From IMG/VR virus record IMGVR_UViG_2872185964_000003: a DNA stretch of 26,705 nt. One strand, 5' to 3'. The notes beneath the pieces were generated by a model. That model worked only from the letters and a program-made list of their open reading frames with translations, did no database searches and was not told the origin of the DNA. Position numbers and translations under genes: made by a program. Every line of letters starts with the position of its first letter. The first letter of the stretch is position 1. This stretch comes from a virus (Duplodnaviria; Heunggongvirae; Uroviricota; Caudoviricetes). Positions 22,488-24,062 of this stretch are shown here, piece by piece.

Positions 22488-23077
22488 TCAGGTGTTATTT
22501 TTATCTGTCGTCAGTGGGCTAAACCATCCACAATTTACATCGCATGACTGATGCGTTCTGTCCTCGTGTTTCTCCTGCCACAATGCTTTTCCGCCAGCCT
22601 TTATGATGGCTCTTTCAACATCCCGCTCGTATCGCAAGGGCTGAAATACGTCATTAATGAAATATTCGCTTATGTCCGGAAGCGATACTGCAAAATTATT
22701 TGTTTGTTGCGCCGTCCTGCTATGCAGCAAAGCGGCATGCTTTAATGCGTCCTGTGCTTTCTGGAATTTAAGTGCATAGTCAGTGGCGATTTTTTCCAGT
22801 TCAGCGATTCGGTTGTCTTTGGTTTCCAGCCAATCAAGTAGCGCCAATACTTCAGGATCCCGACATCCAACACTGTTACGCGTGATTTTTCATAATGTTC
22901 GTCAGCAAGAGTTCGGCCAATTTTGAAATCTCCATCATCACCATAACCGGAGCAGGCATAAACAACCTGTGCTCCAGATATTCGCTGAATTGACATTTCC
23001 TCGCCGCAAATAGGGCATTTCGGTACTGGCACAGGTGAATAACGTTCACGTAATGCCTGATAGTTGATTTCGCTCAT
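22488..23077 (-). CDS. Hypothetical Zn-ribbon protein, apparent frameshift near 22885
   Basis: N-terminus MSEINYQALRERYSPVPVPKCPICGEEM...YACSGYGDD and a coiled-coil C-terminal part in a second frame. The break is at an A5 run; AAGGAG RBS upstream. Confidence 0.55.
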
Positions 23078-23140
23078 TAAGTCGTTCTCCTTGTTTATGT
23101 TCTGAGGTGGAGAGCAGGGCGAACTCGCCCTGATGTTGTG

Positions 23141-23452
23141 TTATTCAGGAAATAACGCCCGGATATTTCCGGCCATCTGACTGGTTATCTGTGCGGTTGA
23201 TACTGGCTGTGATGTGGGGCGTTCTGTCCTGGTTTGTGTCACTGATAACGCTTCATCACCAGCCCATGCAGCCAGTCGATAAGCCTCTGCCGGATTCATT
23301 TTCAGAAGTGCCAGCCCGGCCAGAAAAGCCACGCGTTGGCCGCTTTTGCGGGCTTCTGGTGTAAGGCTGTCCAGCCAGGCGCATGCTTCTCCTTCGTTCT
23401 TGACGGCGGTGGGCTTCAGATAGAAACTTATCCGTCTGGTTGGAGTCGTCAT
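23141..23452 (-). CDS. parR: ParR-like centromere-binding protein (type II partition adaptor), 103 aa
   Basis: The Met at 23452 directly follows the parM stop. RISFYLKPTAVKNEGEACAWLDSLTPEARKSGQRVAFLAGLAL resembles the ParR N-terminal RHH region. Confidence 0.6.
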   Translation of the reverse strand: MTTPTRRISFYLKPTAVKNEGEACAWLDSLTPEARKSGQRVAFLAGLALLKMNPAEAYRLAAWAGDEALSVTQTRTERPTSQPVSTAQITSQMAGNIRALFPE

Positions 23453-23456
23453 TGGT

Positions 23457-24062
23457 TTACTCCTTGTCCATTGCGTACAGCCCATTAACCAGAGCAAACT
23501 GTGGCACCCCGTCCGCGATGAAAGTCGCATTAACTCCGCAGGCTTCGCGGATAGCGGGTGCCACAATCTCCGCCCCTCCACCGACAACCATCACCCGCCC
23601 GTAACCCGAAAAACCCGCCAGCGCGCGGATCACGCGTTGTTTCAGTGTTTCTTCCTTTTCACGAATTACCGCCATCAGGCTGGCGTAATGCGCGTCATTG
23701 TGGATGTGCTGGCGCAGCCAGGCTTCATCATGGCGATGTTCGATAATGGTATTGGCGATGTGGTGACTGGTGCGCATACCGTTAGTGGCCATCACCGACA
23801 GTACGGCATCGGCCATCAGAGAAACGCCCACGTGTGGATCGCAAAACACCTGGCTGATACCTGCCAGTTGCCCCTGAACCTTTGCCACATCCAGCGTGGT
23901 TCCGCCCAAATCCACAATCAGCAGGGATTCAAACGGACTCATGTCAGCCAGTGCCTTAAAGCCAGCCGGAATGGATTCAGGCATAACCCGTACGTTACGG
24001 ATAGTGAATGCTTCGCCGTTCTGGTACTCCACCGGGCGCATGACGTTCGCTTTTTTGCGGTT
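23457..24062 (-). pseudogene. parM: ParM/StbA-like actin-type partition ATPase, 5'-truncated by IS911
   Basis: C-terminal roughly 200 aa with conserved VMPESIPAG...LLIVDLGGTTLD...VGGGAE motifs of ParM; the N-terminal half is missing. Confidence 0.8.

Follow-up and report, generated by a model that had tools for sequence, protein, structure and literature searches.

A parMR partition cassette truncated by insertion sequences in a P88-like, P2-family prophage

The gene block at positions 22488-24062 of a 26,705-nucleotide viral sequence (IMG/VR record IMGVR_UViG_2872185964_000003; this whole stretch is referred to as the window) is very probably the accessory cargo, truncated by insertion sequences (IS), of a P88-like (Xuanwuvirus, Peduoviridae) P2-family prophage, and in its intact form this cassette would operate by a type II partition mechanism. 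This reading draws on demonstrated homology, synteny, IS junctions, repeats, and purifying selection. The cassette itself is already known, being a published and common cargo module of P2-like phages, and the gene set that looks odd in the window can be explained as normal phage cargo that has undergone IS-mediated decay, which matters little for the window itself. What deserves attention is that an R1-type cassette is conserved and evolves under purifying selection in P88-like loci although these phages integrate.

Gene content of the block

Three minus-strand genes make up the block: an Ead/Ea22-like gene, parR/stbB, and a truncated parM (Table 1). All elements described in the initial annotation, which had been made from the sequence without database searches, were recovered to the base. 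Its proposal of a ParM-like C-terminal piece next to a ParR-like gene was put to the profile searches that it had suggested, and these returned homology far beyond chance for both proteins. The parM fragment matches the ParM C-terminal domain PF21523 (E 4.6e-69) and the end of StbA_N PF06406 (E 8.2e-15). The 118 N-terminal residues that are absent from it include the DDGSTNIK phosphate-binding motif (residues 6-13), and the complete actin-fold ATPase with a phosphate-binding motif that is expected of a type II system is encoded by the intact relatives but not by the window. The adjacent ParR belongs to PF10784 (E 3.2e-23), an assignment with which PHROG 2515, "partition protein," agrees, and it differs from the protein of an intact relative by the single substitution A79T. 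Judged by its sequence, it has the features of a ParR adaptor, since it is encoded directly 3' of parM and possesses an N-terminal domain and a C-terminal tail.

Table 1. Features of the window around the parMR remnant
Feature	Position	Strand	Description
cos-side non-coding region	22000-22450		Conserved; between the portal (Q) stop (21999) and the variable cargo
Ead/Ea22-like accessory gene	22488-23077	-	PF13935; 196 aa in relatives; putative Zn-ribbon (CPIC...C) at the N-terminus, followed by a coiled-coil-like region
Hairpin 3' of parR	23115-23132	-	18-nt palindrome CAGGGCGAACTCGCCCTG
parR/stbB	23141-23452	-	Intact 103-aa ORF; centromere-binding adaptor of type II partition system
parM'	23457-24062	-	3' two-thirds of actin-like ATPase gene; residues 119-319 of 319 (201 residues)
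IS911 fragment	24063-24602	-	540 bp; terminal inverted repeat and 3' part of orfB; cut by IS1203
Complete IS3-family element (IS1203/IS629-like)	24603-25911	-	orfA 25532-25807, orfB 24645-25535, frameshift pseudoknot
P2-type tyrosine integrase remnant	25912-26705	+	Lacks roughly the first 60 codons; frameshifted; runs off the window end

The third gene had been described as encoding a Zn-ribbon/coiled-coil protein. The gene is real and was identified as Ead/Ea22-like, with two matches to PF13935, one in the N-terminal half (E 2e-14, profile positions 1-63) and one in the C-terminal half (E 1.4e-9, positions 71-134 of 139), both of which exceed the gathering score, so that family membership extends over the full length. 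In the window, the gene is split into two overlapping ORFs. An alignment with the intact relative traced this to a 1-base deletion in a run of C at 22858/9, and restoring one C results in a 196-aa protein that is 100% identical to WP_001289966 of that relative. As for the Zn-ribbon, all Pfam matches to such domains remained below the cut-off (E 0.006-0.1), and the only metal ligands evident in the N-terminal part are C21-x2-C24 and C42; a Zn-ribbon is plausible on the basis of the CPIC...C motif and these sub-threshold matches. A PDB sequence search retrieved no relative of this protein. The slot that the gene occupies, between the hairpin and the cos-side region, is filled differently from relative to relative: with an Ead/Ea22-like gene, with two small ORFs in P88, with a gene for a 135-aa protein, with a DUF4760 gene plus others, or with an extra gene.

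The dyad that had been noted at 23117-23130, between parR and this third gene, is present and extends to the 18-nt palindrome CAGGGCGAACTCGCCCTG. On the sense strand, it folds into a 7-bp stem with a 4-nt loop (-14.8 kcal/mol, z = -3.5). The stem is conserved in relatives with differing downstream genes, and in one of them (L006) an A:T pair has undergone a compensatory change to G:C. Because it has been kept despite the differing downstream gene and because of the compensatory change in its stem, the hairpin is considered to mark where the conserved parMR module ends on its 3' side. A role as a classical parMR terminator was rejected, since the sense strand has no U-tract and the terminator scan scored the dyad as terminator-like on the plus strand only. 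It is probably the 3' boundary or a stabiliser of the parMR transcript, or else a terminator for antisense transcription.

Position in intact phages and the question of a plasmid origin

Positions 9313-24062 of the window align at 98% to an intact P2-like prophage of E. coli FDAARGOS_1299. The order of genes there is tail and head genes, terminase, portal (Q), cos, ead/Ea22-like, StbB, ParM, replication endonuclease (gpA), small early genes, Cox, repressor C, integrase, and pdxB. The same ParM-StbB pair between gpA and portal/cos was found in the induced phage P88, in E. coli strain 2-1, and in the circular record of a complete phage of 34.5 kb, as well as on large plasmids, where it lies inside P2-like prophages. 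At least 80% of window positions 22000-24100 are held by 226 of the 5,426 complete E. coli genomes. In a phage collection of 50,697 records, ParM homologues are confined to 14 P88-like records and the P1-like phage D6.

The region between gpA and gpQ is a cargo hotspot in the P2-like phages of E. coli, and a putative plasmid partitioning system has been reported at this site in about one-quarter of P2-like phages (Rousset et al. 2022, PMC9122126). The block of the window can be assigned to this hotspot: the window retains the flank on the Q side, gene A delimits the block in the intact relatives, and the content next to parR is variable. A table in the same study lists these three protein accessions together and in the same arrangement (PMC9122126). 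Sequenced examples of this cargo, among them P88, Xuanwuvirus P884B11, and Citrobacter phage phiSM, which like P88 is an induced phage, agree with the window in position, gene order, and orientation. The ParM sequence is 98-100% identical to the ParMs of deposited phages of the P88-like type. Compared with the intact P88-like cargo, the window copy has lost parM codons 1-118 as well as the repeats upstream of the gene and the entire adjacent early region, and its third gene is frameshifted by 1 base. Another cargo of the slot between A and cos/Q is represented by old and tin of P2, which occupy the same position but encode unrelated proteins with a phage-exclusion function.

Since the block has the same position and order in intact phages and in the cargo reported by Rousset et al., it is interpreted as native cargo and neither as a plasmid fragment nor as a replacement of the early region. 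The initial annotation had placed it at the position of the early/immunity region of a P2-like prophage; the module is instead in its usual place, and it is the adjacent segment from A to cox and C that was deleted by IS events. The first of the two origins proposed there, cargo at the cos-proximal hotspot of P2-like phages, was confirmed by the synteny with intact, IS-free prophages and with induced phages. Among the findings that would refute its reading, the initial annotation had named a region that is a standard component of related intact P2-like phages, and this is what the intact relatives and the published data indicate (PMC9122126).

The second origin proposed, a fragment of a plasmid parMR locus brought beside the prophage by IS911/IS1203-mediated recombination, appears extremely improbable. 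IS elements do adjoin the parM fragment, and ParM has some 1,740 plasmid relatives, but the parM DNA of plasmids is only 60-80% identical and over part of parM only, whereas the window is 98-99.8% identical to intact prophages that are free of these IS elements and carry the block in the same place. A search for distant DNA matches and a tblastn search were conducted over 72,556 plasmids. With the phage ParR as query, tblastn returned seven plasmid records and no others, and all seven include DNA of P2-like prophages. A plasmid origin was rejected, because near-identical copies among these plasmids were seen only in plasmid-borne P2-like prophage DNA or in contigs that had been mislabelled; the comparison of synteny with plasmids that the initial annotation had recommended leads to the same conclusion, as does the presence of the block in IS-free prophages.

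Insertion sequences and loss of the early region

On its cos side, the block is bordered by sequence that is shared with another P2-like phage. The non-coding region at 22000-22450 is common to the P2-like phage 500465-2 at 93.8% identity, a phage that does not possess parMR. It contains three TTGTGCA motifs at 22423-22449 that are phased at 10 bp, and what we take to be the cos core, near 22308-22326, was assigned by its resemblance to the P2/186 cohesive end.

On the other side, the block is followed by two insertion sequences and a remnant of the prophage's own integrase. The initial annotation had attributed the truncation of parM to IS911, and the junction bears this out: the IS911 terminal repeat TGAAGTGG starts at 24063, exactly where the parM fragment stops. 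The IS911 fragment matches IS911 of phages Sf6 and SfII at 100% and encodes an integrase core of the rve type, and matching E. coli records label the element at 24063-24602 as IS911-family. The complete element that follows has terminal repeats: TGAACCGCCCC lies at 24603, and the complementary copy ends at 25911. Its Pfam domains are HTH_Tnp_1, HTH_21, and rve, it is annotated as IS1203 in a matching E. coli record, and an Rfam ALIL pseudoknot was detected at 25461-25577. Beyond it lies the integrase remnant, with matches to PF24624 (Int_N, E 1.3e-26) and PF00589 (E 4.6e-10). This remnant is 96% identical to the int gene of the parMR-carrying P2-like prophage of E. coli strain 2-1, in which int is also interrupted by IS1203.

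The arrangement can be accounted for by three steps, the order of which is deduced from the end state only. IS911 would have inserted into parM at codon 118/119, and a copy of IS1203 would then have inserted into that IS911. A deletion ending at IS1203, most simply by recombination with a second IS1203 in int, would finally have taken the rest of IS911, parM codons 1-118, the 38-nt repeats upstream of parM, A, B, cox, C, and the first 60 or so codons of int. The same remnant also occurs in a linear record of Shigella boydii 600657 that bears the label "plasmid unnamed." The junction arrangement was found in none of the complete E. coli genomes, and a search with the exact junction of parM' and IS911 in contigs representing one genome per species gave no match.

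That any upstream centromere had been lost together with the 5' end of parM was also part of the initial annotation, and this is borne out by the intact relatives, in which candidate centromere repeats are present upstream of parM. These 38-nt repeats, described below, are absent in the window, where their core pattern occurs once, with 3 mismatches, 18 kb away, and the ParR-binding repeat array upstream of parM that characterizes parC is missing from the window copy. Because its ParM has no N-terminus for nucleotide binding and the candidate centromere has been lost, the partition system in the window is non-functional; it also has no native promoter. The possibility of a hybrid promoter, formed with an outward-facing -35 element (TTGACC) in the IS911 end, was considered and dropped, as no acceptable -10 element was seen by eye at a distance of 16-18 bp.

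A retention of the surviving genes for a function in the host, in which parR would act in trans on P88-like phages or plasmids entering the cell or the Ead/Ea22-like gene would serve as a moron, is judged very unlikely. Consistent with it, the parR ORF is intact apart from the single substitution, the Ead/Ea22-like gene is identical to the intact version but for one homopolymer base, the same remnant is found in the Shigella boydii strain, and the hotspot is known for defence cargo (PMC9122126). Such near-identity to intact phages, however, is what a recent deletion would be expected to leave and need not reflect selection; moreover, frameshifts appear to affect many further genes of this prophage, the native upstream sequence has been lost with no promoter evident, and the genes gave no matches to defence models. 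A reading of the block as a defence system was accordingly rejected, given that neither ParM nor ParR nor the Ead/Ea22-like protein had a PADLOC match at E values up to 0.01.

The intact cassette, its relation to R1 ParMRC, and its possible role

The intact cassette is a bona fide relative of the R1-type ParMRC system. ParM of an intact relative aligns with ParM of plasmid R1 (PDB 1mwk) over residues 2-316 (E 1.2e-92), and the likeness to the R1/NR1 system (parM/stbA, parR/stbB, and parC) comprises an ATPase that is homologous over its full length, an adaptor of the same Pfam family encoded immediately downstream, the C-terminal tail motif of this adaptor, and, as a candidate centromere, repeats upstream of parM. 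Apart from the phage proteins, PF10784 also takes in the ParRs of IncI1/B/O and IncL/M plasmids, whose genes lie downstream of parM (about 1e-32), and an R1 ParR sequence. In BLASTP, the phage ParR and the IncI1/B/O ParR share 20% identity (E 0.001), and no plasmid relative of the phage ParR at BLAST level was found outside P2-like prophage DNA. A four-way ParR alignment revealed a conserved N-terminal block and a terminal N-I-x-x-L-F-P motif, with a shortened linker between them, and the phage protein has 103 aa as compared to 117-147 aa for the plasmid proteins. The N-terminus of R1 ParR is a ribbon-helix-helix DNA-binding domain, and its C-terminal tail docks on ParM. A PDB sequence search identified no ParR relative, and a single-sequence AlphaFold2 model of the phage protein was unusable (pLDDT 49). 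Two allelic types of ParR occur among the P88-like loci.

The two systems differ in their carriers, an integrating phage here and a low-copy plasmid in the case of R1, and the candidate centromere of the phages also differs from that of R1. Intact relatives possess two 38-nt direct repeats, 73 bp apart, upstream of parM, each with an ACGGGAyt-N-aATCCCGT palindromic core; one is situated in the 76-bp spacer between A and parM and the other within the last codons of A. Across an entire phage genome, this core was found only upstream of parM, and 0 of 100 shuffled sequences reached this count. The initial annotation had suggested searching other copies for residual parC-like repeats, and these two units are a reasonable candidate for the parC/operator site. 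The candidate with its two palindromic units contrasts with the established architecture of R1, two blocks of iterons of about 10-11 bp, ten iterons in total in R1 parC, and the plasmid relatives that were examined have blocks of iterons of about 10 bp. On the opposite strand, the 38-nt units look like intrinsic terminators and so may be something other than ParR sites. R1-type parMR operons have their own autoregulated promoter inside parC. A simple scan detected no sigma-70 promoter upstream of the phage parM.

The intact cassette would accordingly be ordered as candidate centromere/operator, parM, parR, and one variable gene. By analogy with R1, ParR dimers would bind the 38-nt repeats and probably autoregulate expression, while the ParR C-termini would capture the ends of ParM-ATP filaments, so that ParR-bound circular phage genomes would be pushed apart. 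Such an action could take place only while the phage DNA is extrachromosomal, presumably following infection, following excision, or during a plasmid-like carrier state. Among the phage lineages, parM (dN/dS 0-0.08) and parR (0.12-0.32) are under purifying selection, and the cassette therefore does something for the phage. Only annotation-level mentions of ParM of P2-like phages were found in the literature, and no experiments on it; an experiment on its function could be guided by the two-unit centromere candidate and by the two allelic types of ParR.

The phage collection offers one further comparison. Phage-plasmid D6 has a StbA-type locus with a ParM homologue that is 47.5% identical over 99% of the protein. 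D6 is a 91-kb P1-like phage, whereas the P88-like phages have an integrase gene and occur in integrated form. Prophages of the P1-like type, such as D6, are plasmids, which gives partition an obvious role.

For the intact P88-like phages, one possible, although not the favoured, explanation is that the cassette provides an early-phase function, positioning or separating replicating or unintegrated circles in the manner of AlpC/AlpA, in which case the remnant in the window would represent a lost lytic function. In agreement with this, parM follows A in the same orientation at a distance of 76 bp, with neither a sense-strand terminator nor a promoter predicted between them, although the scans used were crude; one repeat unit overlaps the end of A, although the proximal unit sits where an autoregulated operator of the parC type would be; and the phages carry an integrase gene and have been found as integrated prophages. 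There is also a precedent in prophage CGP3 of Corynebacterium glutamicum, where an actin-like protein and a DNA-binding adaptor (AlpC/AlpA/alpS) act on excised phage DNA and AlpAC is needed for efficient replication of CGP3 DNA (PMC4446434, PMC5539076). AlpC, however, belongs to a different actin-like family and to a host of a different phylum, and its likeness to the P88-like cassette is a functional analogy only. Plasmid maintenance, on the other hand, is the role favoured by Rousset et al. (PMC9122126), and one complete P88-like genome was deposited as a circular "plasmid."

A more specific version of the early-phase explanation is less likely still and is put forward tentatively, on the strength of gene arrangement and analogy. 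It holds that parMRC of intact P88-like phages may be a function of the early operon, with a two-unit centromere that overlaps the last codons of A, that it would separate unintegrated or replicating circles and would not maintain the prophage as a plasmid, and that the parR of the remnant could act in trans on incoming relatives.

With a query spanning attP (one integrase type), 591 of 601 places were chromosomal and none spanned attP, and there is consequently no support for routine plasmid carriage of these phages. The circular "plasmid" record of the P88-like phage begins exactly at the att crossover point and may be an assembly of excised phage DNA.

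Candidate centromere and ParR types

Two 38-nt direct repeats, each with a palindromic core, were found upstream of parM in the intact, IS-free parMR-carrying relative L001, the distal one falling within the 3'-terminal codons of replication gene A. This pair is a candidate for a minimal parC centromere. Similarly, an IncL/M plasmid relative carries repeat blocks upstream of its own parM that are also 73 bp apart. Both repeats have been deleted from the window. ParR occurs as two allelic types, represented by L001 and another parMR-carrying relative, L005, that share only about 51% identity, with most of the divergence in the central linker. 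The accompanying ParM proteins share about 99% identity, and the repeat regions upstream hardly differ.

Coordinates of the features discussed
Feature	Location	Strand or spacing	Remark
38-nt direct repeats (2)	L001 16453-16490 and 16526-16563	73 bp apart	upstream of parM
ParR, compared types	L005 5832-6146; L001 15145-15456
TTGTGCA motifs (3)	window 22423-22449	exact 10 bp spacing	just inside the conserved cos-side region
Candidate cos cleavage site	window 22308-22326
Rfam ALIL pseudoknot	window 25461-25577	-	116 bits; in the IS1203-like element, where orfA and orfB overlap
Example indels	window 10875, 12900, 14400, 15514, 19198, 20850, 21698, 22046, 22483, 22859

Conserved cos-side region

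The three TTGTGCA motifs of the window may form a protein-binding array. The stretch that contains them is also present in a P2-like phage devoid of parMR, which assigns it to the cos/packaging side rather than the partition cassette. A 19-nt segment of the same region is the probable site of cos cleavage: its reverse complement (GGTGACGGGGGAACAGCCC) resembles the cohesive ends of P2 and 186, which are likewise 19 nt long.

Records deposited as plasmids and sequence integrity

Two of the related records have been deposited as plasmids. L004 (NZ_CP148288.1), from an E. coli isolate of a cat, is a circular 34,461-bp entry in which the genome of a P88-like phage is complete: int, parMR, and every structural gene are present. 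Its first base coincides exactly with the att crossover point, and the record represents either an episomal form of the phage or an assembly made from its excised DNA. L002 (NZ_CP049283.1, "plasmid unnamed" of Shigella boydii 600657) is linear and measures 26,762 bp; the decayed P2-like prophage that it represents is that of the window, down to the parM'-IS911-IS1203 junctions. Plasmid replicon typing of L002 assigned no replicon, and this record is probably a chromosomal contig carrying a plasmid label.

Sequence comparison of window positions 9313-24062 with the intact prophage identified 20 indel events, at least 12 of which are single-base deletions inside G or C runs. These events disrupt the terminase, portal, and other genes. 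Their pattern looks like long-read homopolymer miscounts rather than real pseudogenes. Indels in the sister record L002 are more numerous and are located at different sites. The ALIL pseudoknot identified in the IS1203-like element fits an intact signal for programmed frameshifting. The stretch of the prophage that carries the tail genes (window 3180-9550) is rearranged with respect to L002, the annotation of which lists IS1 copies and an invertase-type recombinase near the tail-fibre genes.
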